Origin: a virus
Taxonomy: Duplodnaviria > Heunggongvirae > Uroviricota > Caudoviricetes
Reading direction: 5' to 3' (one strand)
IMG/VR virus record: IMGVR_UViG_3300048854_000273
Span: 43,413-107,412 of that record
DNA: 64,000 bases
Shown: positions 752 to 63,788 of the stretch, in pieces
Layout: every line of letters starts with the position of its first letter
How positions within the stretch are numbered: position 1 is the first letter of the stretch
The notes under the pieces: model-generated
Seen by the model: only the letters and a program-made list of their open reading frames with translations
Told to the model about the DNA's origin: nothing
Databases searched by the model: none
Translations under genes and position numbers: made by a program

Positions 752-765
752 AGTCAGTTTTGACT
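752..765 (+). promoter_or_regulatory. motif AGTCAGTTTTGACT
   Basis: overlaps the stop codon of 754..1146; followed 62 bp downstream (minus sense) by hairpin 662-690. Confidence 0.6.
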
Positions 766-1146
766 GTCCTCTCGCACAGCAATAAGCAATGCCGTCGCGC
801 GGGCAAGGTTTTCGTCAGATTGCGCAGACGTCTCCCTGGGTGTGCCATCGAGTTCGAAGCGACACACCCATCCCCCGCCCGGTTCGGGCATCACAGAGTG
901 CGGGATTTCGCGCTTAGCGAGCGCTTCTAGCGTGAGAGTCTCGCGTTCGCTGAACCGGGGTGCTGTAACCCAGTTGGTTTCGTCGGGATGGATGCCATTT
1001 TCCCAGCACTTGATGAGACCATCCTGGATTTCGACGAGGTAGCCGAGCGCAACCGCGATGGCTGCATCGAGCCTCAGTCTGTCTCTATCCACGGGGTCAG
1101 CCCAAGTTGGGTCCGCCTCGCATTCCCGGTATTCTTTATCTTTCAT
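754..1146 (-). CDS. hypothetical protein (130 aa)
   Basis: ORF with coding-like composition; last gene of minus-strand operon. Confidence 0.45.
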   Translation of the reverse strand: MKDKEYRECEADPTWADPVDRDRLRLDAAIAVALGYLVEIQDGLIKCWENGIHPDETNWVTAPRFSERETLTLEALAKREIPHSVMPEPGGGWVCRFELDGTPRETSAQSDENLARATALLIAVREDSQN

Positions 1147-1216
1147 TCTTTGTTTCTTTATTACTTATTACTTAATCTATACGGGAACGACTTGGGAGCC
1201 CAAGTGCGGACCCAAG

Positions 1217-1543
1217 TCAGGAACCCTCGAAAATCTCGTCGAGGAGTGAGTCTTCTTCTGAAGCAATGAATGCCGGACCCGGAGATGTCACGGGCGAGAC
1301 GACATAGCCGCGGCCTTCCTTCGTGATCGAGATCAGCACCCGCTTGCGGTCCCGGCGCTTCTCGGCCCCAGTCTTCTCAATGAGCCCATGCTTGATGAGA
1401 GCGCGGATCGAAAACTGGATAGACGCCTTCGTGGTCTCGTAGTTGATTCGCTCGATGACCTGGTCGAGATCGCACGCGGAGCCATCCGGGTTAGCCGCGG
1501 TAATCACGCGCAGCAGCTCGATCTGTTTGGTGGTCAGGTGCAT
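1217..1543 (-). CDS. MarR-type winged-helix transcriptional regulator
   Basis: IQFSIRALIKHGLIEKTGAEKRRDRKRVLISITKEGRGY resembles MarR wHTH recognition helix and wing. Confidence 0.55.
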   Translation of the reverse strand: MHLTTKQIELLRVITAANPDGSACDLDQVIERINYETTKASIQFSIRALIKHGLIEKTGAEKRRDRKRVLISITKEGRGYVVSPVTSPGPAFIASEEDSLLDEIFEGS

Positions 1544-2465
1544 TAAACGGTCCCCGCGAGCTTTGAGAGGTCGAGCGGCGCGTCCACCGGCTGGTTGTCA
1601 TACGCGAGCAGCGGAACGCGAGCGGGCAGCTCCCGCGGTGCTCCGAGATCGACGTCATAGTCCGGGTTGAGGTAGACGCCGTAGAGCGGGCTGGCGAAGA
1701 CCAGTTGCTGAAGTTGCTTGAGCAGCCAGCCCACTTCCATACCCTCAATGCGCTCCTGGGCGTCAAAGCGCTTGTTGCCCGACTTCTCGCGGCTCGAGTT
1801 GCGGAAATAAAAGGCCCGCAGCTCAGCCACACACTTCCCGCGGATGTGCGCGGGCATGGCGTTGATTTCTTCCATCACGCCGACATAGTCGGACGGCACC
1901 GATTCGAACCAGCGCCGGAACAGTTCGAGGCCCGATTTGTATTTGGCACTGGGCCGCGGCCGCACAAACCGCACACCCGCCTTGGCCGCGAATGGGTTGA
2001 ACTTCGACATGGACGACTGGAACTCCACGATGCTCGAGCCCGACAGGCGCATCATGAGGTTCTGCATCCGGTAAGCGATGCCGGCCCCGCGATACATGGT
2101 GTCCAGCACCAGGCGGCTGTTCGTGCAGGCGTTGTCGTTCAGCCAGTTCATCCGATACTTGTTGATGAGCTTGGTGTCCATCCCGTTCTGGTTGGGGCGC
2201 AGATGCTTGAACACTTCGTTGCGGCCCGAGGACAGCGCGGAGGACACCGTCATGACGCCCACTCCGATGGTCTGGTCGCGCAGCACGCACCGATAGAAAT
2301 TCGGCCCGAACGGCAGGTTCTCGGCTTTGTAGTGCAGCTCATGCAGCAGATCCCAGTCCGCCTTGGTGCCGCGTTCGACGTAAATCTCGGGCAGCAGTGA
2401 CAGGCTCACGCGGCCGACGTCGTGCCGCTCGATCAGGACGTCGGGGTTGTCAACGACGATCGCCA
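1543..2465 (-). CDS. hypothetical protein (~307 aa; start taken at MAIVVDNPDV)
   Basis: long ORF; upstream in-frame extension is Arg-rich and overlaps the neighbouring membrane-protein gene. Confidence 0.45.
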
Positions 2466-2734
2466 TTGCGTTTGCTTTCCATAAACCGTTGATAGAACCA
2501 GATGCTGGTTGCGATGCCTGAGCAGCCGCCGGCAGCGCTCGCGAGAAACGCATAGAGCGATCCTGACGCTGCCGCGTGGGCAAAGGTGAACTGACCCACG
2601 CTGATCCCGAAGGACGTCACCACGGACGCGAAATAGCGCCCCTGATTGACGTTCTTCGACTGCACACCGAGAAGAAACACCGACCCGAATGATGCGGCGA
2701 AAAGAATGAGCAGCGTGAGCCAGGTCATTCGCAT
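2450..2734 (-). CDS. small membrane protein (2 predicted TM segments)
   Basis: MRMTWLTLLILFAASFGSVFLLG... hydrophobic; ORF-track version 2450..3040 carries a spurious Arg-rich N-terminal extension. Confidence 0.45.
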   Translation of the reverse strand: MRMTWLTLLILFAASFGSVFLLGVQSKNVNQGRYFASVVTSFGISVGQFTFAHAAASGSLYAFLASAAGGCSGIATSIWFYQRFMESKRNGDRR

Positions 2735-3063
2735 GCCCGCGCGGCGGCTGAGAGCTCGGCCATCGACACGGACGACGCCGCGGTGCTCGCCAGCGTCGTA
2801 GTGTTTATGCAGGTGGGGCCGCCGATTACGCCCGTGAAACCGCCGGGTGTGAGGCCGATACCGACACCTCGCAGGTAGCCGTCGGGGCTGACCATTAGCG
2901 AGTCCTGCACCGTCTTCGGTCGATCGGCGGCCGGCTGCTTCTGTGCCGGCGCTGCGCCCACCTGACTCAGCTTGTCCCGAAGCTGTTCGCGCACGTCCAT
3001 GTTGATATCGGCGCCGCCGTCGAGGAACCCTTCGAGCCACCAGATGAATTGTTCGGGCGTCAT
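2725..3063 (-). CDS. hypothetical protein (112 aa)
   Basis: MTPEQFIWWLEGFLDGGADINMDVREQLRDKL...; ATGA start/stop coupling with the upstream small ORF. Confidence 0.45.
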   Translation of the reverse strand: MTPEQFIWWLEGFLDGGADINMDVREQLRDKLSQVGAAPAQKQPAADRPKTVQDSLMVSPDGYLRGVGIGLTPGGFTGVIGGPTCINTTTLASTAASSVSMAELSAAARACE

Positions 3064-3236
3064 ACGGCGTTCACCAGGATCGTGGTTGCGTTGGCGATGT
3101 CCAGATCGGACACACCACCGGTCGGCGGCAGGTCGTCATCGTCCCGGCGGTCCTTGCTGTCGACCATCTTGACGATCAGCGCCCAGAAAGCGAGCAGGCC
3201 GATGATGATCAGAGGCAGGGTCAGGCAAAGGTCCAT
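3060..3236 (-). CDS. small membrane protein (58 aa), not in ORF track (<60 aa)
   Basis: MDLCLTLPLIIIGLLAFWALIVKMVDSKDRRDDDDLPPTGG...; stop TGA overlaps next ATG; start 2 nt after thioredoxin stop. Confidence 0.4.
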   Translation of the reverse strand: MDLCLTLPLIIIGLLAFWALIVKMVDSKDRRDDDDLPPTGGVSDLDIANATTILVNAV

Positions 3237-3237
3237 G

Positions 3238-3588
3238 TCAGAACTCCAGTTTGAGTGCGGACTCGCCGAGTCCGAGTTCGCCGAAATACTCTTTCAGCGC
3301 GGCTTCGGTGCGGTCGCCCGAGAAGCGGCCCTTGGGCAGCCCGCCGTCGAGGGTGATGACTGTCGGAACCGCGCGCACGCCAAAGAGACCGGCCAGTTCC
3401 GGCTGATCACCGGCATCGACCACGGCGAGCGTGAAGCCCCACTCGTCGGCGAGTTTCGCGAGCTTGGGCTTGAGCTGCCTGCACGGGCCGCACCACGAGG
3501 CCGTGAAAACCACGACCACGGGCTCCTGCTGCGACTTTTCAGTGACGAAGTGGTCGAACGTTTCCTTCGTCGGGTTAATGACCGGCAT
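3238..3588 (-). CDS. trx: thioredoxin
   Basis: WCGPC active-site motif (ASWCGPCRQLKP) and thioredoxin fold spacing; start taken at MPVINPTKE. Confidence 0.85.
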   Translation of the reverse strand: MPVINPTKETFDHFVTEKSQQEPVVVVFTASWCGPCRQLKPKLAKLADEWGFTLAVVDAGDQPELAGLFGVRAVPTVITLDGGLPKGRFSGDRTEAALKEYFGELGLGESALKLEF

Positions 3589-4237
3589 CTTTGTATCCTT
3601 CGGGGGTGTAGGCGACCTCGATCTTTTCGCGGTAGCGCTTCTCGATGTAGACGGAAGGCGCCAAGTCCGCGCGCAGGTCGAGGTGAGTGGTAGCGACAAG
3701 CAGCGTCGCGCCGGCGGTGCGGGCGACCTTCTGCATGTTGAAAGCAATGACGCGGGCAGTGTCCCGGTCGACCACGGCGAGAAACTCGTCGGCAACCCAG
3801 ACCTTGGCGTTCGCTTCGATCAGCTTGGCGAGACGGAACCGGTAGCGCTGCCCGTCCGACAGCTCGGCGGGCTTGCGAATGAACAGGTAGGCGTCGTTCA
3901 GGCCCGCGATCGACAGGTATTTCAGCGCGTCGTTGGTGTCGGTGCCGATCTGGTTGATGAGCGGGCAGTCCTGGAACTGGATCTCATCGATATCGCACAC
4001 GGCGTCGCCGGCGGCCTTCATCTGCGCCTTCAGCTCTCGCAGGACTGTGGACTTTCCCGAGCCGGACTGGCCGGTCACGTAGACCACATCTCCCTGCTCG
4101 ATATCGATTGCCTGGTTGTCGAAAACGACGAATTCCTTGTCGTCCAGACCCAGCCCGAACGCTTCGGCGATCTCCAGCACGCGGTCGGTGCGCTCAACCG
4201 TCGCCGTGAAGCGCTTGTTCACCATGTATTGAGTCAT
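3575..4237 (-). CDS. ABC-transporter-type ATP-binding domain protein (stand-alone NBD)
   Basis: Walker A GQSGSGKST, ABC signature LSDGQRYRFRLA, Walker B VWVADEF, H-loop TTHLD; start taken at MTQYMVNKRF. Confidence 0.65.
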   Translation of the reverse strand: MTQYMVNKRFTATVERTDRVLEIAEAFGLGLDDKEFVVFDNQAIDIEQGDVVYVTGQSGSGKSTVLRELKAQMKAAGDAVCDIDEIQFQDCPLINQIGTDTNDALKYLSIAGLNDAYLFIRKPAELSDGQRYRFRLAKLIEANAKVWVADEFLAVVDRDTARVIAFNMQKVARTAGATLLVATTHLDLRADLAPSVYIEKRYREKIEVAYTPEGYKDAGH

Positions 4238-5599: not shown

Positions 5600-5600
5600 G

Positions 5601-5987
5601 TCAGACGATCACCCAGTCTTCAGCCAGCATGTCGGTCTGAGTTGGCACCCACGGGACTAACTTGTCGTCGGTTGTCTTGATGCAGACCCAGGGCAGCTCC
5701 GGCAGCTCGCCACCCTTACTGCTCGTCAGCAAGCAGCCCTGTGGGTCAAAAATTTCGAGCCACATGCCCTTGCCGTTCCATCCCGCGCGCGCGACTCGCT
5801 GGTCTAGCTTCACCGCGTCAATCGCTAGTCCAAACGTGAGACCATCAGCGGCGCGATAGGCTTTGTGGAACGTGTCAGCAGGTGACCAGCTCATGTAGCC
5901 GTCCTCGTATTGAACGGTGTAACCGTCGACGCCCTCACGGGCCTGCGGCTGTGCCTGGACGATCTTTGTGCCGATATAGCGCTTCAT
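5601..5987 (-). CDS. DUF2829-like protein
   Basis: ARAGWNGKGMWLEI matches the conserved GWNGKGM core of the phage-associated DUF2829 family (from memory). Confidence 0.5.
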   Translation of the reverse strand: MKRYIGTKIVQAQPQAREGVDGYTVQYEDGYMSWSPADTFHKAYRAADGLTFGLAIDAVKLDQRVARAGWNGKGMWLEIFDPQGCLLTSSKGGELPELPWVCIKTTDDKLVPWVPTQTDMLAEDWVIV

Positions 5988-6004: not shown

Positions 6005-6018
6005 AGTCAGTATTGACT
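6005..6018 (+). promoter_or_regulatory. motif AGTCAGTATTGACT
   Basis: 17 nt upstream of the ATG of 5601..5987. Confidence 0.6.
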
Positions 6019-6021: not shown

Positions 6022-6669
6022 TTAATGCGTAAGCAGATGGACCAGCGCGTTGCCAGCGTTGGTCAGGGAGTCGTCTTCGGTGAACCGCTGGGCCTTCATC
6101 GTGGACTCGATCAACTCCGTGATGGTGCTGACGTCCTCGACCGGAACCTTGAAGCGCATCACCTGGTGGGTCTGAACCGCCTTCTCTTTCGGGAGAACGC
6201 TCGGGCTCCCGTCATCGTCCGGTATGTCTAAATCATCCAGCGCTATATTTACTGACGAGAAGATCGACGCGAAATCAGCGTCGGTGTAGGGCATGAAGCT
6301 CGCGAGGTCATCGGGTGAGCCCAGACCTTCCAGAAGCTCCGCCAGGCGCAACGTGTCGTCGTTGCCGTAGCGGCCGTTGTCGACCAGGCTGATCTCTTTT
6401 GCCCGCTTGTCGTCAATGCGACCGAGGTTCGTCACCGGCACCTGCGATAGCTTCAAACGGATCGCTGCATCGCGCCGGTGTGCGCCGCCCAGGATCTCCA
6501 GTGAGCCGTCATCCAGTTCGCGAACGATGATCGGCTTGAAGAGGCCCAGGCGCGTGATGGACGCGTCAATCTTGGCCTCGTTCTCGGGGCTGACCACGTT
6601 CGTGTTCCAGCCGTTGTGCTTCAATCGCTCGGGCGCGATCTGCACCGACTGGAATGGGGTTTTGCTCAT
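6022..6669 (-). CDS. ParB-like nuclease domain protein
   Basis: LEILGGAHRRDAAIRL ParB-type motif; AGGA RBS; motif 6690-6703 lies 20 nt upstream. Confidence 0.65.
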   Translation of the reverse strand: MSKTPFQSVQIAPERLKHNGWNTNVVSPENEAKIDASITRLGLFKPIIVRELDDGSLEILGGAHRRDAAIRLKLSQVPVTNLGRIDDKRAKEISLVDNGRYGNDDTLRLAELLEGLGSPDDLASFMPYTDADFASIFSSVNIALDDLDIPDDDGSPSVLPKEKAVQTHQVMRFKVPVEDVSTITELIESTMKAQRFTEDDSLTNAGNALVHLLTH

Positions 6670-6689: not shown

Positions 6690-6703
6690 AGTCAGTTTTG
6701 ACT
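6690..6703 (+). promoter_or_regulatory. motif AGTCAGTTTTGACT in divergent region
   Basis: 20 nt upstream of 6022..6669 start and 37 nt upstream of helicase ATG. Confidence 0.6.
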
Positions 6704-8313: not shown

Positions 8314-8327
8314 AGTCATTACTGACT
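8314..8327 (+). promoter_or_regulatory. motif variant AGTCATTACTGACT
   Basis: 12 nt upstream of ATG 8340. Confidence 0.45.
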
Positions 8328-10986: not shown

Positions 10987-11002
10987 CGTTTCACGTGAAA
11001 CA
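10987..11002. promoter_or_regulatory. canonical parS centromere-like site CGTTTCACGTGAAACA
   Basis: 15/16 match to the chromosomal parS consensus TGTTTCACGTGAAACA; perfect 14-bp palindrome GTTTCACGTGAAAC. Confidence 0.6.
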
Positions 11003-11015
11003 CTCAGTTTTGACT
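11002..11015 (+). promoter_or_regulatory. motif ACTCAGTTTTGACT abutting parS
   Basis: read directly. Confidence 0.55.
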
Positions 11016-11770: not shown

Positions 11771-11800
11771 TTTTCGACTCTCAAAGTGTGTTGTGTTTCA

Positions 11801-11814
11801 CGTGTCAGACAGTC
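11801..11814 (+). promoter_or_regulatory. motif AGTCAGTTTTTACT
   Basis: 30 nt upstream of 11024..11770 start; preceded by half-parS. Confidence 0.55.
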
Positions 11815-11982
11815 AGTTTTTACTGTCTGTCTCGCTACAACGTTGCAGCGAGTAGAGACAGTATGACGACATATGAAACACATGTAAATATCTTTCGCAC
11901 GTATTTTCTAGAGTCGTTACTGGAGTTGTTTTTGCGCGGAACCGCTTGCAGGGCCGCTCGGGCGGGTGTAGTGGCGAGGGCT

Positions 11983-12058: not shown

Positions 12059-12182
12059 CCCTGAGCCGCCCTAGGCCACGCCACGACCTCGGGTAACGGC
12101 CTAGGAGCTTCCCCAAGGGCGGCCTTAAAAATCCCGAAAGCGTGTCGGCGGCCTCTCCCGTTCCGACACCCTGGCCCTACCC

Positions 12183-12379: not shown

Positions 12380-12393
12380 CAGGGTTTAAGTCA
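12380..12393 (+). promoter_or_regulatory. motif AGTCAGTTTTGACT
   Basis: 11 nt upstream of ATG 12368. Confidence 0.6.
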
Positions 12394-12554
12394 GTTTTGA
12401 CTGTATGTGGTGATACGGAATTAACGGGTAGCCATGCGGAAGATGCCGTAGGCCGTCTTGTAGGCTTCGCGGGGCGAAGCACCGGCCCGGCGAGCTCCGA
12501 GATACGCGTCACGCTCGATGGGTCGCAGCGAGCGAAAGGCAGCAGCAAGGGCGC

Positions 12555-13440: not shown

Positions 13441-13454
13441 ATTCAGTTTTGACT
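13441..13454 (+). promoter_or_regulatory. motif ATTCAGTTTTGACT
   Basis: 41 nt upstream of ATG 13399. Confidence 0.5.
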
Positions 13455-13499: not shown

Positions 13500-13730
13500 T
13501 CCGTCGGCCTAGGACGATCCCCTTGGCCAGCTCCTGCATTCCCTCACCCTGACACCCGAGCCGGCCTAGGCTCATCACCAAAGGGCGGCCTAGGTCACCT
13601 CCCGATCCGCCCTCGGAAACGTCATAAGGGTGTCGGCCGCGGCTCCCGTTGCCTTGGTGCTCGGCCTAGGGCGAACCCCGTGGAGTCTTCTGAAACTTGG
13701 GTAGGTGTGTCGGCGACGGCGCCCGTTCTT
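13500..13730. repeat. non-coding repeat cluster: CGGCCTAGG x4 (13508, 13565, 13589, 13665) plus GTGTCGGC..CTCCCGTT x2 (13630-13650, 13707-13727)
   Basis: read directly; no convincing ORF. Confidence 0.55.
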
Positions 13731-14016: not shown

Positions 14017-14030
14017 TAGGGATCATACTC
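14017..14030 (+). promoter_or_regulatory. motif ACTCAGTTTTGACT
   Basis: in the non-coding region 13760-14190. Confidence 0.5.
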
Positions 14031-14195
14031 AGTTTTGACTGTTGTCGTCAATGCAGGTTGGGAGGCAATGTGTAAGTGTTGGCGGGCGCGCAACGATTTT
14101 CGTCGCTGTATAGCTATACCGCCTCCCCTCTCCCCGCACCTTTACGTCTTATCCTTTCCATACCGTAAGCCGCACCCCTTGCCGGAGCCACTGCT

Positions 14196-19417: not shown

Positions 19418-19431
19418 ACTCAGTTTTTACT
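19418..19431 (+). promoter_or_regulatory. motif ACTCAGTTTTTACT
   Basis: AT-rich divergent region 19350-19630. Confidence 0.5.
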
Positions 19432-19540
19432 ATTCTTAGCAAGAGCATAGGCCATCTTATCTTTCGAAATCATGCAGTTTTGTTGCCTTTAAGCTGAACA
19501 CCGTGGTCCCGCTTGGTGCGACGATCTTCGCACGCTAGTG

Positions 19541-19554
19541 TGTCAGTATTGACT
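19541..19554 (+). promoter_or_regulatory. motif TGTCAGTATTGACT
   Basis: 76 nt upstream of the (+) ATG at 19631. Confidence 0.5.
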
Positions 19555-19630
19555 GATCGATAATTTGCGCATACCGATCATTCTGTGATACGTCCTCCCT
19601 GCTACACTTCGGTTTTCCGAGGAGGATGTA

Positions 19631-21747: not shown

Positions 21748-22048
21748 TTTTGAATCTCCGAATGTATGAAAAAAGTGTGTTATCGCTGCAACGTTTCTAA
21801 TGCTACGGATCAATCAGAGGATTTAAAACTGACTGCTTAAAAGTTCCCGCTGACCGTCTTTTGCTGCTGTCTCGCGTTCGTTGCTGCGATGTATGAATAT
21901 TAAAGATTGACTGTTGGAGTCGTGGTGGGCAACGGCAAGGAAATGCAGGCGCTTTTCGGTGAATGAGCGAGCGCGTGCGGCGCGCGCGAATAGCACGCGT
22001 GGTGAGGGGTGTGGTCAGGCTAGAATGGGCGCTTTTAAGGAGACCAAG

Positions 22049-26396: not shown

Positions 26397-26410
26397 AGTC
26401 AATTGTGACT
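26397..26410 (+). promoter_or_regulatory. motif AGTCAATTGTGACT
   Basis: 27 nt upstream of ATG 26369. Confidence 0.55.
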
Positions 26411-26429: not shown

Positions 26430-26443
26430 AGTCAGTTTTTACT
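26430..26443 (+). promoter_or_regulatory. motif AGTCAGTTTTTACT
   Basis: second copy in the same divergent region. Confidence 0.55.
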
Positions 26444-31366: not shown

Positions 31367-31400
31367 CGATTTCTCCTTCAACGGGTTGAACACTTAAACT

Positions 31401-31430
31401 AGATACATAGTCAGTTTTGACTATGTATCT
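31401..31430 (+). promoter_or_regulatory. motif AGTCAGTTTTGACT (31409-31422) embedded in a 13-bp-arm perfect inverted repeat AGATACATAGTCA/TGACTATGTATCT
   Basis: read directly; 43 nt upstream of ATG 31366. Confidence 0.65.
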
Positions 31431-31462
31431 ATGTTAAAAGCTCAACACTGGAATGTGTTCGG

Positions 31463-32889: not shown

Positions 32890-32903
32890 AGTCAGTTTTG
32901 ACT
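32890..32903 (+). promoter_or_regulatory. motif AGTCAGTTTTGACT
   Basis: 27 nt upstream of ATG 32862. Confidence 0.6.
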
Positions 32904-35440: not shown

Positions 35441-35871
35441 AACTCCTTGTAGCCGTTTGCCTGCAACGCGCGAGGCACGGCGGTTGAAAAGAATTCCTGG
35501 GCCTTCTTCGTCGAGTCGAGGGTCTTGTCATGGCGCTTTCCGCTCTTGAGAAACGTAATCGCCACATCCTCCTGACCGACGATCCACTCCGCCGTGACCA
35601 GGCGGTCATCGTCCTTATGCGCAAACACGCGCTTGAGAACCAGCGGCTCTTTCGGGCACTGCTCCTGCGCCGCGGTGATCAGGTCGATAAAGTCCTTCTT
35701 CAGCAGGCCCGATACGGTCATGAACAGGACGTCGATGCCGACGCTGAACTGGTCCGCCGTCATGCGTCCCTGATCGACCGAGTAGCACAGCCACTCCAGC
35801 GTTTCGAACGCTTTACGGTCGATCTCTTCCTGGAGGGTTGGAACGTCAGTTTTGACTATCGCAGCACGCAT
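35437..35871 (-). CDS. hypothetical protein (144 aa); motif copy encodes residues IVKTD near the N-terminus
   Basis: AAGAGG RBS 8 nt before the ATG at 35871; alternative start MTADQ at 35763. Confidence 0.4.
   Translation of the reverse strand: MRAAIVKTDVPTLQEEIDRKAFETLEWLCYSVDQGRMTADQFSVGIDVLFMTVSGLLKKDFIDLITAAQEQCPKEPLVLKRVFAHKDDDRLVTAEWIVGQEDVAITFLKSGKRHDKTLDSTKKAQEFFSTAVPRALQANGYKEF
35844..35857 (+). promoter_or_regulatory. motif CGTCAGTTTTGACT (inside the first codons of 35437..35871)
   Basis: read directly. Confidence 0.45.
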
Positions 35872-35943: not shown

Positions 35944-35957
35944 AATCAGTTTTGACT
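35944..35957 (+). promoter_or_regulatory. motif AATCAGTTTTGACT
   Basis: 72 nt upstream of ATG 35871. Confidence 0.5.
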
Positions 35958-39657: not shown

Positions 39658-39671
39658 AGTCAGTTTTTACT
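39658..39671 (+). promoter_or_regulatory. motif AGTCAGTTTTTACT
   Basis: between the nrdB stop and the lipoprotein gene; followed by leader hairpin 39613-39630. Confidence 0.55.
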
Positions 39672-41023: not shown

Positions 41024-41037
41024 ACTCAGTTTTGACT
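41024..41037 (+). promoter_or_regulatory. motif ACTCAGTTTTGACT
   Basis: 7 nt after the nrdA stop; followed by hairpin+U5 40995-41013. Confidence 0.55.
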
Positions 41038-43345: not shown

Positions 43346-43359
43346 AATCAGTTTTGACT
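43346..43359 (+). promoter_or_regulatory. motif AATCAGTTTTGACT
   Basis: 40 nt upstream of the nrdA ATG. Confidence 0.55.
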
Positions 43360-43953: not shown

Positions 43954-43967
43954 AGTCAGTTTTTACT
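43954..43967 (+). promoter_or_regulatory. motif AGTCAGTTTTTACT
   Basis: 39 nt upstream of ATG 43914. Confidence 0.55.
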
Positions 43968-48582: not shown

Positions 48583-48596
48583 AGTCAGTTTTGACT
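48583..48596 (+). promoter_or_regulatory. motif AGTCAGTTTTGACT forming the whole spacer between the SleB-like stop and the sbcD RBS
   Basis: minus-sense read: TAG-TGTAGAT-AGTCAAAACTGACT-GGAGGAATC-ATG. Confidence 0.65.
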
Positions 48597-49049: not shown

Positions 49050-49063
49050 AGTCAGGGATGACT
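49050..49063 (+). promoter_or_regulatory. motif spacer variant AGTCAGGGATGACT
   Basis: half-sites kept, spacer changed; 41 nt upstream of the SleB-like ATG. Confidence 0.5.
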
Positions 49064-51960: not shown

Positions 51961-51974
51961 CGTCAGTTTTGACT
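51961..51974 (+). promoter_or_regulatory. motif CGTCAGTTTTGACT
   Basis: 17 nt upstream of the recA ATG. Confidence 0.55.
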
Positions 51975-53840: not shown

Positions 53841-53947
53841 CTTTTTTCCTTTTTCCAGTTTTCTTTTGATCGTAGAGAGATGCCTTTTAGACAACGCGGT
53901 GTGGTGCTGATGCTTCACCGCGTCATCGTTTCAGCAAGAAAGATTAT

Positions 53948-53961
53948 AGTCAGTTTTGACT
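53948..53961 (+). promoter_or_regulatory. motif AGTCAGTTTTGACT
   Basis: 29 nt upstream of the GTG at 53918 (107 nt upstream of ATG 53840) of the SSB gene. Confidence 0.6.
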
Positions 53962-55078: not shown

Positions 55079-55092
55079 ACTCAGTTTTGACT
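55079..55092 (+). promoter_or_regulatory. motif ACTCAGTTTTGACT
   Basis: 6 nt after the dnaE stop; followed by hairpin 55044-55064 then GAGGAG RBS of 53980..55014. Confidence 0.55.
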
Positions 55093-55098: not shown

Positions 55099-58000
55099 TC
55101 AGTTAAGACAATCAGCCACCTTTTCAAATACGGCTGCCAGGATCTCGGCCTTCGATGTGTCGAACAGGATCTGCTGCGCGTTAATGCCGCACACGATGCT
55201 CGCGTCCAACGTCTTGTCGAAGATCACCTTGCCGGCGAGTTCGGCCGTGCCGCCCTTGATGCCCGGCACGAAGTGCTTGATCGACGCCGAGCCAAGCGCC
55301 ACGATCACCGCGGGCTTGATCAGCTCCAGCTCGCGCTGAAGGAAGCCCTTGCAGCCGTTGATCTGGGCGTTCGAGAGGAACTTGTCGCTCTTTTTCGCCT
55401 TGACCAGCGACGTGTAATAGCCCTCTGCCGGATTGAGTCCCGCCTGCTTGATCGCTTCCTTGATGAAGTCGGCCGCATCCCCTTCAAGCATCTTGTCGGC
55501 CTTCTCCTCCTGCCAGCTCGGACAGTCGGACACGACCATGAACTTAACCGTGTGCTTGGCTCGCACAGTCGGGTGTGGCTGACCCGCCAGATCGCAGCCC
55601 TCGCAGTTCTTGTATTCCTGCACGAGGCTGATCACCTTTGCACGCAGGAACGTTTCTTTCAGGTCTGTCGTGCGATCGGCCTTCACGCTGTCGATGATGA
55701 GGCCGCCCATCAGTTCGGTCTGTTCACGGCGTCGGTCCGGGTGTCGCGCAGGTTTTGCCCCTGGTTGCAGCGGCACGAGGGCGCCGACTTTATCCAGCCC
55801 ATCGCGGACCTTGCTGTTGACCTTCGAGCCCTTTGCTTCCGTGATGTTCAGGAACTCATCCATGTCCTTGAACGTGCCGCCGTTCTGGCGCCGCAGCTCC
55901 ACAATGCGCAGTGCCGTGTTCTCGGAGATACCCTTCACGGCCGAGAACGGCGCGAGCAGGTGGTTGTCGTCGGGAATCGTGAAGCGCTCGCGCGACAGGT
56001 TGATATCGGGCGGCAGCACTTCGATGCCGAACTCACGCGCTTCCTCAACGAGACTCGGCAGCTTTTCTTCCTTCACGATCGACATGCAGGCGGCGAAGTA
56101 TTCCGCCGGGTAGCGCACGCGCACCCACATCGTCCAGTAGGAGATGAGCGAATACTCCACCGCGTGCGAGCGGTTGAAACCGTAGCCTGCAAAGGCTTCG
56201 ATCTTGTCGAACAGCTTGCCGGCGGGGATTTCGTCCATGCCCGACTTGGCGAGACAGCCGTCGACCCACTTCTGTCGCATTTCGGCCATCTTGTCCTTGT
56301 CCTTCTTGCCCATCGCTTTGCGCAGGTGATCCGCTTCAGCGCGCGTAAAGCCCGCCAGATCGACCGCCACCTGCATGACCTGTTCCTGATAGACGATGAC
56401 GCCGTAGGTGTCCTTTAGCGCCGCCTCCATGTTCGGATGATCGTAGTAGACAGACTTGGCACCTTGCTTGATCTGGATGAAGTCGTCCATCAGCCCCGAG
56501 TCCATTGGACCTGGCCGGTAAAGCGCGGTCGCGGCGGTTACGTCCTCGAACGTGAGCAGCCCACCCATCGCGAGATTGCGCAGCAGTGCCTTCATGCCGC
56601 CCGAGTCGAACTGGAACACGCCGGTTGTGTCACCCTTGCCGAACGCAGCCATAATGTCTGGCTCCTCCAGCGGCAAGTCCAGGTAGTCGATTTTCTTGCC
56701 GTGCCGCTCCCCGATGTAGGTCTTGGCAATCTCCAGCACGTCGAGCGTGGAGAGCCCCAGAATATCCATCTTGACCAGGCCCCAGTCCTCGACGACGCGC
56801 TTGTCCCAGTTCACGACCGGCGACTCGCCGCGCGTTTCAACGACTGCCCGGTTGATCAGCGGCTCGCCTGCGACAACCACACCGGCTGCGTGCTGCCCGA
56901 ACGAACGCATGGCCCCTTCGAGCTTGAGCGCATGGCCCCAGACCTCCGGGTGGGTGTCACGGAACTTCTCCAGGTCAGCAACCGCCTTCGCCGCTTCGGT
57001 GAGCGTGAAGGAGTTGCCGTGCTCTTTCGGCACGAGCTTGGTCGCGGCCAGGTCCAGGTTCGACAGACCCCACACGCGCCCCGTGTCGCGCAGCGCCGAT
57101 GCAGAGGCGAGCGTCGAGAAATTGGAGATGCCGGCGACGCGGTCGGCGCCGTATTTGCCGGTCAGATATTCAATCACCAGATGGCGCTTGCTCGACATGA
57201 AGTCCAGGTCAGCATCGGGCAAATCCAGACGCTCGGGATTGATGAAGCGCTCGAACAGGAGGTTGAAGCGGATCGGATCCACGTCCGTGATGCCGAGCAG
57301 ATACGCAACGAGCGAGCCGCCGACCGAACCGCGGCCTGGCCCGACGATAATGTCGTTCGCCTTCGCCCACATGACAAGGTCTTCGACCAGCAGGAAGTAG
57401 CCGGCGAAGCCCATTTTCTTGAGCACGCCCAACTCATACTGGAGCCGCGTCTTGTATTCAGGCATGAGCGACACGGGCGGCAGATAGCCGAGCACCGGAT
57501 ACGTGAAGCGCCGCTTCCAGCCCTCAATGCACTTCCTGCCAAGCGTGACGAACTCGTTCTCGGCCATTGCGGGCAGCGAGACCGGGTGTTTCTTGAACTC
57601 GTAGCCGCACTTCGCCGCGAGCTTCTCGACGTTGGTCAAGCCAGCCAGCCACAGATGTGGCTCATGCACGCCGTAGAACCGCTTCACGCGTGTGGCGGCC
57701 GCCTTCAGCCGCTCGATGACGTGCTTGGGCTCGGCGAAACCAAAGTCGCGCACGTGCTGGATGGGTCGATACGAGACGTCCATCTTCGTGTTCGACGTCA
57801 CTGCGCCCAGCACGTCCAGGCTGTCCGCGTCGGTGTTCTCGCGATAGAGCGTCGGATAGTTGACGATCGTCTGGACTTCGTGGACGCGCGCGGCCTTCAG
57901 CGCTTCGGCGTTCAGAGTGTCGAATAGCGGCGTGTTGATCGGGACGAGCTCCACCAAAAAGTCGTCCCTGAACGTCATGTTCAGCCGTAGCGCGATATCG

Positions 58001-58464
58001 AACGCTTCCGGGTGGTGGAACAGGTTGAAGAAGTCGCCCGTTGTCACCACGACGCCTTCGAGCTTCAACACGTCCTCGAGCCCGACGCGCGACACGTAGT
58101 AGAAGTAGTCCGGCGAGTTCGCTTTCGACAGCAGCTTGATCAGTCCGGCGACACCGCGCTCGTCCTTCGCATACACCTTCAGGGTGTAGCCGCGGTTCGG
58201 CTTTTCCTTCTCGCCCGACGCCTTCGGCGGCTTGCGGTAGGTGGGATCGTCGACCACGCGCACCGCACATCCGATGATCGGCTTGATGCCGGCTTTCTTC
58301 GCGCGCTGCGAGAAATCGACCATCGCGTGCAGGCTCATTTCATCGACGAGGGCGACGGACTCGTAGCCCAGCTCCTTCGCCTTGCTGACGATATGGTCGA
58401 CCTGCAAGAGTGACTTGCCGATCGAAAAGTCGGAGCGCACCGCGAGGGCATGTCCGAGATTCAT
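55099..58464 (-). CDS. dnaE: DNA polymerase III alpha subunit (DnaE-type, PHP + Pol-beta-like palm)
   Basis: 1121 aa; N-terminal PHP domain; conserved DnaE blocks (GPGRGS, LLFERF, YRPGPM). Confidence 0.9.
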   Translation of the reverse strand: MNLGHALAVRSDFSIGKSLLQVDHIVSKAKELGYESVALVDEMSLHAMVDFSQRAKKAGIKPIIGCAVRVVDDPTYRKPPKASGEKEKPNRGYTLKVYAKDERGVAGLIKLLSKANSPDYFYYVSRVGLEDVLKLEGVVVTTGDFFNLFHHPEAFDIALRLNMTFRDDFLVELVPINTPLFDTLNAEALKAARVHEVQTIVNYPTLYRENTDADSLDVLGAVTSNTKMDVSYRPIQHVRDFGFAEPKHVIERLKAAATRVKRFYGVHEPHLWLAGLTNVEKLAAKCGYEFKKHPVSLPAMAENEFVTLGRKCIEGWKRRFTYPVLGYLPPVSLMPEYKTRLQYELGVLKKMGFAGYFLLVEDLVMWAKANDIIVGPGRGSVGGSLVAYLLGITDVDPIRFNLLFERFINPERLDLPDADLDFMSSKRHLVIEYLTGKYGADRVAGISNFSTLASASALRDTGRVWGLSNLDLAATKLVPKEHGNSFTLTEAAKAVADLEKFRDTHPEVWGHALKLEGAMRSFGQHAAGVVVAGEPLINRAVVETRGESPVVNWDKRVVEDWGLVKMDILGLSTLDVLEIAKTYIGERHGKKIDYLDLPLEEPDIMAAFGKGDTTGVFQFDSGGMKALLRNLAMGGLLTFEDVTAATALYRPGPMDSGLMDDFIQIKQGAKSVYYDHPNMEAALKDTYGVIVYQEQVMQVAVDLAGFTRAEADHLRKAMGKKDKDKMAEMRQKWVDGCLAKSGMDEIPAGKLFDKIEAFAGYGFNRSHAVEYSLISYWTMWVRVRYPAEYFAACMSIVKEEKLPSLVEEAREFGIEVLPPDINLSRERFTIPDDNHLLAPFSAVKGISENTALRIVELRRQNGGTFKDMDEFLNITEAKGSKVNSKVRDGLDKVGALVPLQPGAKPARHPDRRREQTELMGGLIIDSVKADRTTDLKETFLRAKVISLVQEYKNCEGCDLAGQPHPTVRAKHTVKFMVVSDCPSWQEEKADKMLEGDAADFIKEAIKQAGLNPAEGYYTSLVKAKKSDKFLSNAQINGCKGFLQRELELIKPAVIVALGSASIKHFVPGIKGGTAELAGKVIFDKTLDASIVCGINAQQILFDTSKAEILAAVFEKVADCLN

Positions 58465-59227: not shown

Positions 59228-59875
59228 TCAAAGAGTGTCGATAATGCGGCGCACTTCCTGGGCCGCTGCTGCCATGTCGCGCGTGCCGACGTCCTTCTTC
59301 ACCAGGCGAATGAACTTGCAGATGAAGCCGATGTTGACGCCGGCGGCGCACCGCGTGCGAATGCCGATGCTGCGGCTGTAATCGCAGTGCGCCTGGTTCT
59401 TCCTGATCTCCTCCAGCAGCGCGGCCGGTGGGCTCACGATCCACTCTACGATCAGCGCCGCGAGCGGGCTCATGCCCTGCACCGCCTTCTCGATCTGGAG
59501 CGCGCACTGTTGCCGGTCCAGAATTTCCTCCGGCGTCATCGCATCGCTCGGGACGGTTTCTAGAAGGTTGGAGCTTTCGTCGTCGCCCATGCCCTCGATG
59601 CTGAACACGCCGTTCTCGCGCTCCTCCTCACTGCTCTCAGCCTTGCGGTTGATGCGGTTGTAGGCTGCGGTGCCGAAATATGTGGTGAAGGCGAAGCCCT
59701 TGCTCGGGTCAAACTTCGCGTGCGCCAGCAGGAAGGCTTCACGAACGTCGGCGAACACGTCGTCGTATTGGGTGGAAGCCTCCAGGTCCAGGAGACGCCC
59801 ATAGCACTTGCGTGCTATCTGGTGGACGAATCCCAGATTCCCCTGGTAGCACTCGACAATGTCGGCGCTATACAT
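59228..59875 (-). CDS. RNA polymerase sigma-70-family factor (regions 2 and 4; ECF-like size)
   Basis: region 2: YQGNLGFVHQIARKCYG...FDPSKGFAFTTYFGTAAYNRINR; C-terminal HTH-like region; 215 aa. Confidence 0.65.
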   Translation of the reverse strand: MYSADIVECYQGNLGFVHQIARKCYGRLLDLEASTQYDDVFADVREAFLLAHAKFDPSKGFAFTTYFGTAAYNRINRKAESSEEERENGVFSIEGMGDDESSNLLETVPSDAMTPEEILDRQQCALQIEKAVQGMSPLAALIVEWIVSPPAALLEEIRKNQAHCDYSRSIGIRTRCAAGVNIGFICKFIRLVKKDVGTRDMAAAAQEVRRIIDTL

Positions 59876-59881: not shown

Positions 59882-61066
59882 TTAAGCCCCGAAGATGCGT
59901 TGCGAGAGGCCGTCGCAGACTTCGCGATCCACTTTCGACAGCTTGTTGATGAAGGACAGTTGCAGCCCCTGGCGCCACGAACCGCGCTTCATGCCAATCT
60001 TTGCCGCATAGATCAGCGTGCGCGGCGAGATCACGTCCGAAATCTTCGCGCCGTCGTAGGCTTCACGAACCAGCGAGGCGAAGTCGACCAGCTTGTCGGC
60101 GTCGTCCGAGTGGAGACCCACACGCTTCTGCAGGATCAGGCTCTCGAAATTTTTCTTCATGTATTGCTTGTGGATGACCATGCCGAAGCGGTCATAGTTG
60201 GCGCTGTTCTGGAGTGACGTGCCCTGATAGAGGCCCGTTTCGTCGCCCGAACCATTGGTGTTGCCGGTCGCGACGAAGCGGAAGTTCGCGTGCGGCTTGA
60301 TGATCCGGTTGGCAGCGTCCGCTTCCTTGATGATCAGCGGCTTGCCTTCGAGAACGGCCTGATACACCGACAGCACAGACGGCAGCGCGAAGTCGTATTC
60401 GTCGGCGGCATAAACCCAGCCGTGCTTCATGGCGAGCGGCAACGGTCCCAGCTCGAACTGGGTCGAGCCATCTTTCACCGTCCACTGCCCCACGATGTGA
60501 CTTTCTTCGGTGTTGACGGTGTGCTGGACGCGCATCGTGGCGCGACCGGTGCGGGCGCAAATCTGGTCATAGAGCTCCGACTTGCCCGATCCCTTGTGGC
60601 CCCAGACATAGCACGGGATGGACATTTCGAGCGCGAGGATCACGTTCTTCAGCTCGTCCACGTCATAAACGTAGTCGTCCGAGATCACCGGCACCATGTC
60701 GGGATCAGCCGGCGTGGCAATCACGCTGATCGGAATCGGCTCTTTCTTCGAGGACAGGGCGGCAGCGACCTTGCCCAGACCAAACACTTCATGGAACGGC
60801 GCCTTCGTCACCGTGCCGGCGGGCATCAGGGCGGTCACGCTGGCAACCGCGGTGCCTGCCATTGCAACGGGGGCGGGGGCAGCCGCCGCGCGCTCTTGAC
60901 GCTTGCGTTCGAGCTGGGCGAGCGCGAGGTCCGAGAGCAACGGCGCAGCGGGGTATTGCGCCTTGTAATCATCCACCGAAACTTCAGGGTGATCGTCCTT
61001 CAGATGCTTCTGCATCACGTGGACCTGCGCACCGCAAATTTCGCACTTGATCTTGGCATCGCTCAT
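59882..61066 (-). CDS. CobS/MoxR-like AAA+ ATPase (AAA_5) with N-terminal zinc finger
   Basis: Walker A GHKGSGKS, Walker B VYAADEYD; N-terminal CEICGAQVHVMQKHLKDDH. Confidence 0.65.
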   Translation of the reverse strand: MSDAKIKCEICGAQVHVMQKHLKDDHPEVSVDDYKAQYPAAPLLSDLALAQLERKRQERAAAAPAPVAMAGTAVASVTALMPAGTVTKAPFHEVFGLGKVAAALSSKKEPIPISVIATPADPDMVPVISDDYVYDVDELKNVILALEMSIPCYVWGHKGSGKSELYDQICARTGRATMRVQHTVNTEESHIVGQWTVKDGSTQFELGPLPLAMKHGWVYAADEYDFALPSVLSVYQAVLEGKPLIIKEADAANRIIKPHANFRFVATGNTNGSGDETGLYQGTSLQNSANYDRFGMVIHKQYMKKNFESLILQKRVGLHSDDADKLVDFASLVREAYDGAKISDVISPRTLIYAAKIGMKRGSWRQGLQLSFINKLSKVDREVCDGLSQRIFGA

Positions 61067-61152
61067 GTTTTTCTCTCCGAGAGTGAGTTATTACTGACTG
61101 CAGCAACGTTGCTGCGATATGAGAATGATAAAGAAGACCGCTCGGGAATACT

Positions 61153-61166
61153 ACTCAGTTTTTACT
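61153..61166 (+). promoter_or_regulatory. motif ACTCAGTTTTTACT
   Basis: between the cobT-like stop and the cobS-like start. Confidence 0.5.
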
Positions 61167-63220: not shown

Positions 63221-63234
63221 AGTCAAAATTGACT
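63221..63234 (-). promoter_or_regulatory. motif in reverse orientation AGTCAAAATTGACT
   Basis: 18 nt upstream of the cobT-like ATG (63202). Confidence 0.55.
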
Positions 63235-63274
63235 GAATAAGTGAATCATAAACGCGCGCTCACGGGAGCGCAAT

Positions 63275-63288
63275 AGTCAGTTTTGACT
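63275..63288 (+). promoter_or_regulatory. motif AGTCAGTTTTGACT
   Basis: preceded by hairpin GCGCTC-acgg-GAGCGC (63255-63272). Confidence 0.55.
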
Positions 63289-63347
63289 TATCTAAGTGGC
63301 GATAAAAAAGGGCGACTTTCGTCACCCTTTCTCAGGGGCAGCAGGAG

Positions 63348-63575
63348 CTAAGAGAGCATTGCCGCAGTGATGATTACCGCTCCTCCACCGTCAGTGTTGA
63401 CCATCATCAACACCCCGAGAACAGGGTGAATCACTTTACTGATTGATGCTGAGCCCAGATCGATCGCGCCGACCGTCTCGCCTTCGCCGAGGACTTCTGA
63501 AAAGCGATCCAAGTCGACCATCTCACCGAATGCATGTTGTTTTGCACTATTGGCCATAGAACCCACCGTCACCAT
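63348..63575 (-). CDS. small hypothetical protein
   Basis: ORF, weak. Confidence 0.3.
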   Translation of the reverse strand: MVTVGSMANSAKQHAFGEMVDLDRFSEVLGEGETVGAIDLGSASISKVIHPVLGVLMMVNTDGGGAVIITAAMLS

Positions 63576-63626
63576 CTGATTCTCCAGAAACGTCGAACAC
63601 GTTATGTTGTCTTACGCACACATTAT

Positions 63627-63640
63627 AGTCAGTGTTGACT
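63627..63640 (+). promoter_or_regulatory. motif AGTCAGTGTTGACT
   Basis: read directly. Confidence 0.5.
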
Positions 63641-63728
63641 ATCGAAAGCAAATAGCCGAAACCGCTAGACGTCCCGCACCCGGTCGGGCGAGAGTCCTTT
63701 GCCTGCGGCGTAGCTCTTCAAACCATAT

Positions 63729-63742
63729 TGTCAAAATTGACT
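63729..63742 (-). promoter_or_regulatory. motif reverse-orientation variant TGTCAAAATTGACT
   Basis: read directly. Confidence 0.45.
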
Positions 63743-63774
63743 GTTACCCAAGTAATTGGTAGTCTGCGCGTGAC

Positions 63775-63788
63775 AGTCAAGTTTTACT
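63775..63788 (+). promoter_or_regulatory. motif variant AGTCAAGTTTTACT
   Basis: read directly; 75 nt upstream of the (+) gene ATG. Confidence 0.4.

Follow-up and report, generated by a model that had tools for sequence, protein, structure and literature searches.

A 64,000-nt stretch of phage DNA (hereafter the window; positions 43,413 to 107,412 of IMG/VR virus record IMGVR_UViG_3300048854_000273) carries 33 copies of a 14-bp palindrome, AGTCA-N4-TGACT or a variant of it, that lie mostly in intergenic DNA at the starts of operons. Judged from comparison of the window with its relatives, the palindromes are probably, if by no means certainly, dispersed operators of a candidate helix-turn-helix (HTH) protein that would act mainly as the master repressor of a plasmid prophage. 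We infer each of the three parts of this proposal, namely binding by the HTH protein, binding as a dimer, and repression rather than activation. In the mechanism envisaged, the palindrome would be a double-stranded-DNA operator bound by a dimer of a phage-encoded XRE-type HTH protein, and it would be built into nearly every promoter, either upstream of the -10 or the -35 hexamer with one shared T, at intermediate registers, or over the transcription start. The bound protein would occlude host RNA polymerase at ~30 promoters at once, providing a master off-switch that keeps a ~110-kb plasmid prophage silent, and its release would free all operons.

Abundance and conservation of the palindrome

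Nearly all genes of the window lie on the minus strand, and crude gene calls leave 10.7% of the sequence intergenic. The pattern AGTCANNNNTGACT (AGTCA-N4-TGACT) has 14 exact matches against 0.04 expected, and AGTCAGTTTTGACT has 31 matches at two or fewer mismatches against 0.27 expected, a number that 0 of 100 shuffles reach. With the addition of the copies at 49050 (exact half-sites, spacer GGGA) and 63775 (three mismatches) the total comes to 33 sites (Table 1), in agreement with a preliminary description of this DNA that had counted about 32 copies genome-wide. Intergenic DNA holds 25 of the 31 copies (binomial p = 2e-19), and most of the six "coding" copies fall at stop codons or within over-extended starts of open reading frames (ORFs); the element is thus not equally frequent inside genes, and its earlier assignment to operon starts is upheld. 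Distances from the motif to the next start codon are 9, 11, 17, 17, 20, 23, 27 and 27 nt, followed by a cluster at 39-42 nt and by values of 51-116 nt, a wider range than the 9-70 nt given previously.

Read in gene orientation, the element is (A)(T/C)-AGTCAAAACTGACT-(A/G)T. The common orientation, with the T-rich spacer on the plus strand, is found in 27 of the 31 copies, which confirms the bias noted at the outset and lowers the count of about 29 of 32 attached to it; the four reversed copies stand before plus-strand genes or in a divergent control region at 63.2-63.8 kb. Retention of the half-sites around variant spacers, also proposed from the beginning, is borne out by the exact half-site matches. 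In the window lineage the AAAC spacer is near-invariant and strand-polarised, a property common to the related loci L087 and L001. Variants with one mismatch are asymmetric in gene orientation, C4 being changed to A six times while its mirror position G11 is never altered, and C13 being changed to G, T or A about nine times while its mirror position G2 is never altered. These half-site changes are uncompensated, and pairing between the arms is broken.

The same element recurs throughout a set of 80 related IMG/VR loci around dnaE (1.3 Mb), where AGTCA-N4-TGACT occurs 161 times and other spacer lengths (0-9) give 0-7 occurrences; the 14-mer that had been recommended as a query against related phages is therefore family-wide. 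The spacer sequence is free in the relatives, save for a preference for a central T7-A8 step, and the 5' flank is conserved as a-T-A/C. At orthologous intergenic sites the palindrome is retained while its flanks diverge. Variant half-sites with the same 5-N4-5 architecture are AGTAA, in Rhizobium phage B1VFA, locus L017 and a Halomonas locus, and AATCA, in Roseospira and Phyllobacterium. Fixed half-sites at a fixed spacing around a variable spacer are the pattern left by a pair of HTH units in neighbouring major grooves. Of the two modes of recognition first suggested, a dimeric protein or an RNA stem, it is the dimeric DNA-binding protein to which conserved half-sites with a free spacer point, and the RNA stem is poorly supported.

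A reading of the whole 122 kb of phage B1VFA gives 33 copies of TA-AGTAA-N4-TTACT-TA, distributed over all modules including the structural genes. In one group of these copies a -10-like CGCTATAAG box ends 3-5 nt upstream of the palindrome and a Shine-Dalgarno (SD) sequence follows directly, so that the predicted start site falls inside the palindrome (in its left arm at early promoters). In a second group TTGCAA and TACAAT stand on either side of the palindrome, which takes up the 17-bp spacer separating them. Two motifs of B1VFA (L081/L085/L086) are confined to one strand, gCGCTATAAg, which is -10-like and occurs ~20 times on the plus strand, and TTTAAGCTTGCAA, found ahead of structural operons; the two motifs may be the actual promoter-class (possibly sigma-specific) elements, with the palindrome superimposed on them. 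No second motif analogous to CGCTATAAG is enriched in the window.

The palindrome is absent from 43-kb regions of phages SSU5, nickie and BUCTxx99. A repeat of SSU5, CACTACAGTG, was considered as an analogue of the palindrome and rejected, being the iterons at repA. SSU5 (L082) also has a few TAAGTA-N2-TACTTA dyads (e.g. at 15156 and 29082), which have the half-site of B1VFA with 4 bp less spacing. In a clade lacking the AGTCA palindrome, locus L042 carries a dense array of CTAGCTAG / GCTAGATAGC repeats at 3260-3740, upstream of an HTH gene, which could be the operator or iteron region of that clade.

Placement at promoters

The relation of the palindrome to promoter hexamers was analysed with 330 copies from the window and its relatives, set in gene orientation, by scoring TAnnnT hexamers at each offset (background 0-5 per offset). 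In Register I, TAnnnT begins at motif position 14 (65 of 330 copies, 51 of them with at least five of six matches to TATAAT), such that the palindrome's last T is the first T of the -10 hexamer and its centre lies at -18.5; these promoters have no recognisable -35 and show a T-rich tract at about -46 to -39. In Register II, TAnnnT begins at position 37 (52 of 330), preceded by TTGnnn at positions 14-19 and a 17-bp spacer, such that the palindrome's last T is the first T of the -35 and its centre lies at -41.5; two orthologous sites, the cobS and p344 promoters, contribute most of this peak. Minor peaks are found at motif positions 15-16, 19, 23, 25 and 38-39. Mirror-side controls give 24 and 6, showing that the hexamers sit on the gene side. 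Register I accounts for 8-9 of the 31 window copies, Register II for two, and Register II plus 2 nt for two others (marked in Table 1), and two promoters are flanked by pairs of sites (26430/26397 and 63275/63221). At the short-distance copies 48583, 8314 and 6690 the TAnnnT hexamers, placed at -10 to -2, are weaker, and these copies may be of the B1VFA type with a -10-like box upstream of the palindrome. A scan of the window for consensus sigma-70 promoters and terminators gave no enrichment and no complete -35/-10 promoter on the gene strand.

Since the element is always inside the RNA polymerase footprint, at several positions, an operator fits better than a promoter specificity element, and the several registers that overlap the core promoter in B1VFA likewise fit repression better than activation. 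An unlikely though substantial alternative is that the same site, probably bound by the same protein, serves activation, the palindrome replacing the missing -35 at Register I and acting in the manner of class II CRP/FNR sites at -41.5, and so defining a phage-specific class of promoters to which host RNA polymerase is redirected. Register I promoters do combine a good -10 with no -35, two conserved promoters have the centre at precisely -41.5, the classical class II position, and the constant one-base overlap with the hexamer suggests a defined contact with sigma. One activator is nevertheless unlikely to work alike from -18.5, -27.5/-29.5, -41.5 and about +7, and in B1VFA the palindrome lies over the start site or occupies the spacer of promoters whose -35 and -10 hexamers are already near consensus. 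Moreover, the motif is found in early, middle and late modules alike, and cannot therefore define a temporal class.

It was also proposed in the preliminary description that the palindrome is recognised by the phage's own ECF-like sigma factor (59228-59875), an idea that now appears very unlikely. In its favour, most relatives as well as B1VFA and the window keep the sigma gene beside dnaE, the gene strand shows no canonical sigma-70 promoters, and the sigma gene and the palindrome are both absent from SSU5 and nickie. A dyad with a free 4-bp spacer, however, is not a target that a monomeric sigma reads, and the promoters of ECF sigma factors consist of two blocks 16-17 bp apart, whereas the element is a single dyad with no such second block conserved. 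The palindrome stands in several registers relative to ordinary TATAAT and TTGnnn hexamers, Stenotrophomonas phage BUCTxx99 has a sigma-like gene (Sigma70_r2) and no palindrome, and the one-strand motifs CGCTATAAG and TTAAGCTTGCAA of B1VFA look more like promoter specificity elements than the palindrome does. The neighbours of the sigma gene, encoding proteins of 238 and 344 aa, gave no informative matches.

Dyad symmetry would also be expected of an RNA stem-loop, whether for transcript processing, stabilisation of the 5' end, termination or antitermination, or service as a translational operator within polycistronic transcripts. The copy between cobT and cobS caps a longer hairpin, which has an outer stem covarying among relatives and a U-rich stretch after it, the inverted repeat at 31400-31431 has arms of 14 bp (31400-31413 and 31418-31431, rather than the 13 bp at 31401-31430 first reported), and several copies adjoin an SD sequence. 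It is nonetheless hardly probable that the element functions as RNA. The stem sequence is conserved rather than covarying and the loop is free; a 5-bp stem is possible as RNA in only 14 of the 31 copies, with a median minimum free energy of -3.1 kcal/mol, and the variants are uncompensated. The element is upstream of the inferred start at Registers I and II, the early start of B1VFA falls inside the left arm, and Rfam and transfer RNA scans of the window returned no matches. The suggestion of an RNA processing site is not supported, in view of stem formation and of the predicted start, which is downstream of or inside the element at most copies, and neither is that of a translational element, in view of the variable distance to the start codon (9-116 nt).

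A long hairpin as a general feature of the element was considered and rejected. Contiguous extension of the arms is not above control (0.65 versus 0.54 pairs), and although offset outer stems are enriched (37 versus 15.8 +/- 3.6), nearly all of them, and almost all of the above-control flank complementarity, come from the single orthologous cobT-cobS site, which is read as a cobT terminator built around an operator and not as the element's general function. The cobS leader also contains a hairpin GCAGCA-N4-TGCTGC (GCAGCAACGTTGCTGC, 61098-61113), of which the stem is kept and the loop is variable (L002, L004, L027, L005, L012 and L040); CAACGTTG is found in addition at 11838, 16208, 31355 and 35897.

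The candidate regulator and other features of the window

An XRE/HTH_3-type regulator gene begins at 63863 and runs off the right end of the window, so that only its 5' part was available to the preliminary description, which overlooked it. The ORF translates within the window as MVKKDTAMSVADYFSNQVAANQKTLAGLSNDIGGALRPNVLSMISN, and full-length homologues in relatives have ~138 aa. The Pfam HTH_3 profile matches the B1VFA homologue (B1VFA_128) above cut-off with 30.1 bits and those of L087 and L054 below threshold, and matches in PHROGs are to transcriptional regulators and repressors. The gene is divergent from a leftward operon, and the control region between them holds three palindrome copies, of which 63627 is in Register I for the leftward operon and 63729 supplies the -35 of the rightward gene. 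A 75-aa protein is encoded facing the HTH gene; its similarity to B1VFA_129 is undetectable. A profile hidden Markov model finds HTH homologues in 58 loci and none in the 43-kb regions of SSU5, nickie and BUCTxx99, all of which are without the palindrome. Scans of ~60 window proteins with Pfam, NCBIfam and PHROGs gave no other HTH regulator, and the gene at 63863 is the best candidate for the palindrome-binding protein.

The half-site and the recognition helix of this candidate show a suggestive covariation. Two residues before the conserved Asn that opens helix 3, 28 loci have K or R, and position 4 of their half-sites is C 264 times versus 22 times another base; 18 loci have N, T or S there, and position 4 is C 74 times versus 90 times another base, mostly A. 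Locus L094, with PSQN, has half-site AGTGA, and L003, with STPN, belongs to the K clade and has gained AGTAA halves. Contact of Lys or Arg to the G of the C:G pair would be chemically reasonable.

The lifestyle of the family bears on what such a protein might do. An 8-kb Megablast query found no counterpart among GenBank phages, and identification of the phage consequently proceeded through proteins. The best GenBank phage matches of DnaE are Rhizobium phages B1VFA and RHEph10, Stenotrophomonas phage BUCTxx99 and Pseudomonas phage nickie (41-45% aa identity), with Salmonella phage SSU5 at 37%, and the closest match in species-representative genomes is a Paraburkholderia metagenome-assembled genome (90%). 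Other proteins encoded in the window are a DnaE-uracil-DNA-glycosylase (UDG) fusion, CobT, a CobS-like ATPase, the ECF-like sigma factor, SbcCD, both subunits (alpha and beta) of ribonucleotide reductase (RNR), ThyX, RecA, a 5'-3' exonuclease, a gp32-like single-stranded DNA-binding protein (SSB), a helicase and a ParB/Noc-like protein. The window derives from an SSU5-like siphophage or phage-plasmid, probably one of the Burkholderiales. More distant relatives are separate contigs of 96-118 kb in isolates of Massilia, Magnetospirillum, Faunimonas, Ancylobacter, Roseospira, Paracoccus and Phyllobacterium, and by their contigs the relatives are a family of plasmid prophages of ~110 kb. Separate contigs imply a plasmid-prophage lifestyle, and such a lifestyle would need a global repressor. 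The genome announcement of B1VFA infers the same lifestyle from parA, parB and repC (PMC12509600).

Several points weigh against repression of a plasmid prophage by the HTH protein. B1VFA was isolated as a plaque-forming phage, its lysogeny being only inferred (PMC12509600), and loci L016, L018 and L035 carry the palindrome with no HTH homologue within 10 kb of dnaE. The association between residue and half-site (Mann-Whitney p = 6e-8) is uncorrected for phylogeny, and the alignment column was chosen after inspection. Register I promoters are without a recognisable -35 and might need an activator rather than be repressed, the sharp registers with a shared T exceed what simple occlusion requires, and copies such as 48583 adjoin an SD sequence with only a weak upstream -10. 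Finally, a symmetric dimer alone leaves the asymmetric half-site degeneracy and the polarised AAAC spacer unexplained. Overlapping promoter constraints may be the source of this asymmetry, for example an A-tract at -21 to -18, which can activate -10 elements that have no -35 (PMC7229825). Register I spacers in relatives are, however, no more AT-rich than others, and this account of the AAAC spacer is a possibility for the window lineage only.

A more ambitious version of the operator reading, and a decidedly unlikely one, would reduce the whole regulatory code of the ~110-kb phage-plasmid family to one small HTH protein and one 14-bp dyad, with effects set by register. Repression would follow from a centre at -18.5 or over the start site and class II-like activation from -41.5, protein concentration alone would set both the lysogeny switch and the temporal order, and exchange of one amino acid ahead of the recognition helix (K/R to N/T/S) would give rise to new immunity groups (AGTCA, AGTAA and AGTGA).

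The presence of a ParB_N/Noc-like protein (6022-6669) encoded beside copy 6690 raises the prospect that the palindromes are sites of plasmid maintenance or replication, either a centromere for this protein or iterons. KorB of the IncP plasmids, a ParB-family global regulator with dispersed palindromic sites, is a precedent. Such a role is extremely improbable here, given that a separate canonical parS-like site, CGTTTCACGTGAAACA, lies at 10987-11002, that the palindromes are locked to promoter hexamers and gene direction, and that the iterons of SSU5 are a different repeat clustered at repA. The ParB/Noc-like protein itself (minus strand) has a ParB_N domain with a GGAHRR box and aligns to Noc over residues 25-198, and its gene is divergent from the helicase gene, in a synteny common to B1VFA genes 074-076. 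The parS-like site is one mismatch from chromosomal parS (TGTTTCACGTGAAACA) and adjoins copy 11002, and a half-copy, CACGTGAAAC, lies at 11794-11809, after copy 11811; together they flank a gene of atypical codon usage (11024-11770, GC3 0.53).

Table 1. Copies of the palindrome and two genes for candidate regulatory proteins in the window.
Feature	Position	Strand	Context
Perfect copy, gene orientation AGTCAAAACTGACT	752..765	-	Register II plus 2 nt; TTGACA (motif positions 16-21), 17 nt, TACATT (39-44); operator directly upstream of sigma-70-type -35
Copy AGTCAATACTGACT	6005..6018	-	17 nt upstream of ATG of 5601-5987 (Tad2-like); SD 6 nt past motif
Perfect copy, divergent intergenic region	6690..6703	-	20 nt upstream of ParB/Noc-like gene 6022-6669 (-); on + strand side, TGACT-TATACT 37 nt upstream of helicase 6741-8297; syntenic counterpart in B1VFA at 49723
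Copy AGTCATTACTGACT, oriented with + strand gene	8314..8327	+	ATG at 8339, 11 nt on; TACTTT at -9..-4 upstream
Copy AGTCAAAACTGAGT	11002..11015	-	Adjoins parS-like CGTTTCACGTGAAACA at 10987-11002
Copy AGTAAAAACTGACT	11811..11824	-	ATG at 11770, 40 nt on; 5-bp outer stem CAGAC/GTCTG around motif
Perfect copy	12389..12402	-	Small ORF start 11 or 23 nt on
Copy AGTCAAAACTGAAT	13441..13454	-	ATG at 13399, 41 nt on
Copy AGTCAAAACTGAGT, Register I	14027..14040	-	Last T of motif is first T of TATGAT
Copy AGTAAAAACTGAGT, Register I	19418..19431	-	Last T is first T of TATTAT; ATG at 19347, 70 nt on
Weak copy AGTCAATACTGACA, function doubtful	19541..19554	-	Overlaps 3' end of ORF 19535-19969
Weak copy ATTTAAAACTGACT, left half degenerate, function doubtful	21821..21834	+	Upstream of + strand ORF 21914-22279
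Copy AGTCACAATTGACT, second operator of pair	26397..26410	-	ATG at 26369, 27 nt on; at about +8..+21 of promoter made with copy 26430
Copy AGTAAAAACTGACT, Register I	26430..26443	-	Last T is first T of TATACT
Perfect core (31409-31422) in 14-bp-arm inverted repeat	31400..31431	-	ATG with SD AAGGAG 42 nt on
Perfect copy, Register I	32890..32903	-	Last T is first T of TAGCAT; ATG at 32862, 27 nt on
Copy AGTCAAAACTGACG, gene start uncertain	35844..35857	-	At or inside 5' end of ORF 35437-35871
Copy AGTCAAAACTGATT with outer stem	35944..35957	-	Flanked by CGTCAGGGAAC...GTTTTCCCTGACG; ATG at 35871, 72 nt on
Copy AGTAAAAACTGACT, Register I	39658..39671	-	TGACTATAAT; ATG at 39584, 73 nt on
Copy AGTCAAAACTGAGT	41024..41037	-	Between RNR-alpha stop (41044) and terminator-like hairpin 41001-41017; TATAAA from last T
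Copy AGTCAAAACTGATT	43346..43359	-	TATTAT at motif position 15; ATG of RNR alpha (41044-43305) 40 nt on
Copy AGTAAAAACTGACT, Register I	43954..43967	-	Last T is first T of TATACT; ATG at 43914, 39 nt on
Perfect copy, adjoining SD of sbcD	48583..48596	-	TGACTggaggaatcATG; start 9 nt on; TAGTGT at -10..-5 upstream; motif-SD juxtaposition kept in relatives
Exact half-sites, gene orientation AGTCATCCCTGACT	49050..49063	-	TATAAT 9 nt past motif; upstream of cell-wall hydrolase gene 48604-49008
Copy AGTCAAAACTGACG	51961..51974	-	ATG of recA-like 50867-51943 17 nt on
Perfect copy, Register I	53948..53961	-	TGACTATAAT, kept at orthologous site in relatives; upstream of gp32-like SSB 53001-53918
Copy AGTCAAAACTGAGT, Register II	55079..55092	-	TGCAAA (14-19), 17 nt, TATACT (37-42); ATG at 55014, 64 nt on; orthologous in >15 relatives
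ECF-like sigma factor gene	59228..59875	-	Pfam Sigma70_r2 27.8 bits; NCBIfam sigma70-ECF superfamily
Copy AGTAAAAACTGAGT, Register II, apex of longer hairpin	61153..61166	-	TATCAT at position 37; upstream of CobS-like 59882-61066
Copy AGTCAAAATTGACT	63221..63234	+	18 nt upstream of cobT ATG (63202, minus strand); at about +4..+17 of promoter TTGCGC-17-TATGAT made with copy 63275
Perfect copy, directly upstream of -35	63275..63288	-	Register II plus 2 nt; TTGCGC (16-21), 17 nt, TATGAT (39-44)
Copy AGTCAACACTGACT, Register I, facing HTH gene	63627..63640	-	TGACTATAAT; ATG at 63575, 51 nt on
Copy TGTCAAAATTGACT, regulator's control region	63729..63742	+	Right half is -35 TTGACT; 17 nt; TAGTCT (63760-63765, + strand)
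Copy AGTCAAGTTTTACT, regulator's control region	63775..63788	+	10 nt, then TATAAT (63799-63804); arrangement common to L087, L027 and L002
XRE/HTH_3-type regulator gene, 5' part (46 codons)	63863..64000	+	SD AAGGAGG; runs off window end; candidate palindrome binder

A number of other features were observed in the window. The leader of the SSB gene (53919-53947), GCTGAAACGATGACGCGGTG, is kept in relatives downstream of the TGACTATAAT promoter and holds a 3-codon mini-ORF (ATG ACG CGG TGA) overlapping the GTG start, an arrangement that, by analogy, may represent translational autoregulation as for T4 gene 32. DnaE, the Pol III alpha subunit (55099-58464, minus strand), carries its UDG superfamily domain at the C-terminus (residues 972-1070), a fusion conserved in relatives and covered over its full length by phrog_405. 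The minus-strand gene at 5601-5987 encodes a protein with a Tad2-like (anti-Thoeris) domain (Pfam PF11195, E = 2.8e-23). Two tandem adhesin E-like genes (PF16747) lie on the opposite strand at 26549-27354 (plus), in a segment of low GC (0.54), and are followed by a terminator-like hairpin at 27360-27383, giving them a moron-like appearance. A second repeat family, GGCCTAGG / CCTAGGCC, has 8 occurrences that are apparently non-coding (12070-12105, 13506-13670, 15358 and 20236) and are embedded in longer similar segments (ggcggcctagg..., ccttgg...).

Relation to known regulatory systems

By the type of protein and site, the palindromes would constitute an XRE-type operator system whose operators are genome-wide. 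The lambdoid, 434 and P22 CI-Cro systems likewise have dyad half-sites one helical turn apart, an HTH_3-type protein, and a divergent repressor gene with several operators between divergent promoters, and here too a dyad of fixed spacing overlaps core promoter elements and an HTH_3 gene lies beside operators. The difference is one of distribution, as lambdoid operators keep to one or two immunity regions, whereas 33 sites are spread over the 64 kb of the window and 33 over the 122 kb of B1VFA.

In their working, the closest parallels are the P1 C1 regulon, the L5-type stoperators and the KorA/KorB regulons, with the P1 late promoters as the parallel for Register I. In P1, one repressor serves many operators, scattered over the genome at the promoters of different operons; each operator is an asymmetric 17-mer, and C1 does not belong to the XRE type. 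C1 is the primary repressor in P1, for which 45 transcription units are described (PMC10695390). The likeness extends to a phage-plasmid lifestyle, dispersed operators, and a repressor gene in an immunity region with its own operators. The sites of the window differ in being 5-N4-5 dyads and in being more numerous (33 in 64 kb), and the palindromes of B1VFA extend to the late structural operons as well, a class that in P1 is Lpa-dependent. P1 late promoters have a -10 hexamer and, in place of the -35, a 9-bp inverted repeat bound by Lpa, at 11 promoters (PMC10695390). The Register I copies similarly pair a -10 with an inverted repeat and lack a -35, but P1 has a single register and an activator, whereas the palindrome is found also at -41.5, at -29.5, in complete promoters and over the start site. 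No Lpa homologue turned up in non-exhaustive Pfam, PHROGs and NCBIfam scans of ~60 proteins of the partial window.

The preliminary description had compared the element to the stoperators and start-associated sequences of mycobacteriophages. Stoperators are the sites of immunity repressors, and their sequence varies between immunity groups; those bound by L5 gp71 are asymmetric 13-mers, bound by a monomer, that block elongation away from promoters. Like the stoperators of cluster A phages, the palindromes are short conserved sites in short intergenic gaps, ~30 per genome. Unlike them, they are dyad-symmetric and in many cases locked to -10 and -35 hexamers. The polarity of stoperators relative to transcription has a partial counterpart in the window, where the spacer and flanks are polar (27 of 31); the half-sites themselves are symmetric and the spacer of the relatives is free. 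A few copies such as 48583 could act as elongation roadblocks. The start-associated sequences of cluster K have a fixed position by the start codon or SD sequence, whereas here the distance ranges from 9 to 116 nt. The comparison therefore holds as a working analogy and does not extend to membership, because stoperators, start-associated sequences and C1 operators are asymmetric sites read by different proteins.

KorA and KorB of the IncP plasmid RK2 have palindromic operators across the replicon, some over the -10 and some just upstream of the -35, with 7 and 12 sites, and bring about coordinated repression of many operons. Repeated palindromic operators that coordinate many operons are thus common to both systems. 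KorA and the ParB-type KorB belong to other protein families, however, their replicons are plasmids and not phages, and their sites are fewer.

The palindrome is real and clean, but conceptually unsurprising. The literature searched on SSU5, B1VFA and RHEph10 and on the motif sequence yielded no description of it or of lysogeny control in the family. SSU5-like phage-plasmids are widespread, with ~110-kb contigs in isolates of Burkholderiales and of many Alphaproteobacteria, and a dyad at nearly all promoters provides a simple sequence rule by which the promoters and operons of the family can be annotated. The half-site variant may in addition allow immunity groups to be predicted. As a natural case of operators overlapping promoters in fixed registers the element is a clear one, and it may also exemplify a specificity change in which one residue is matched to one base.

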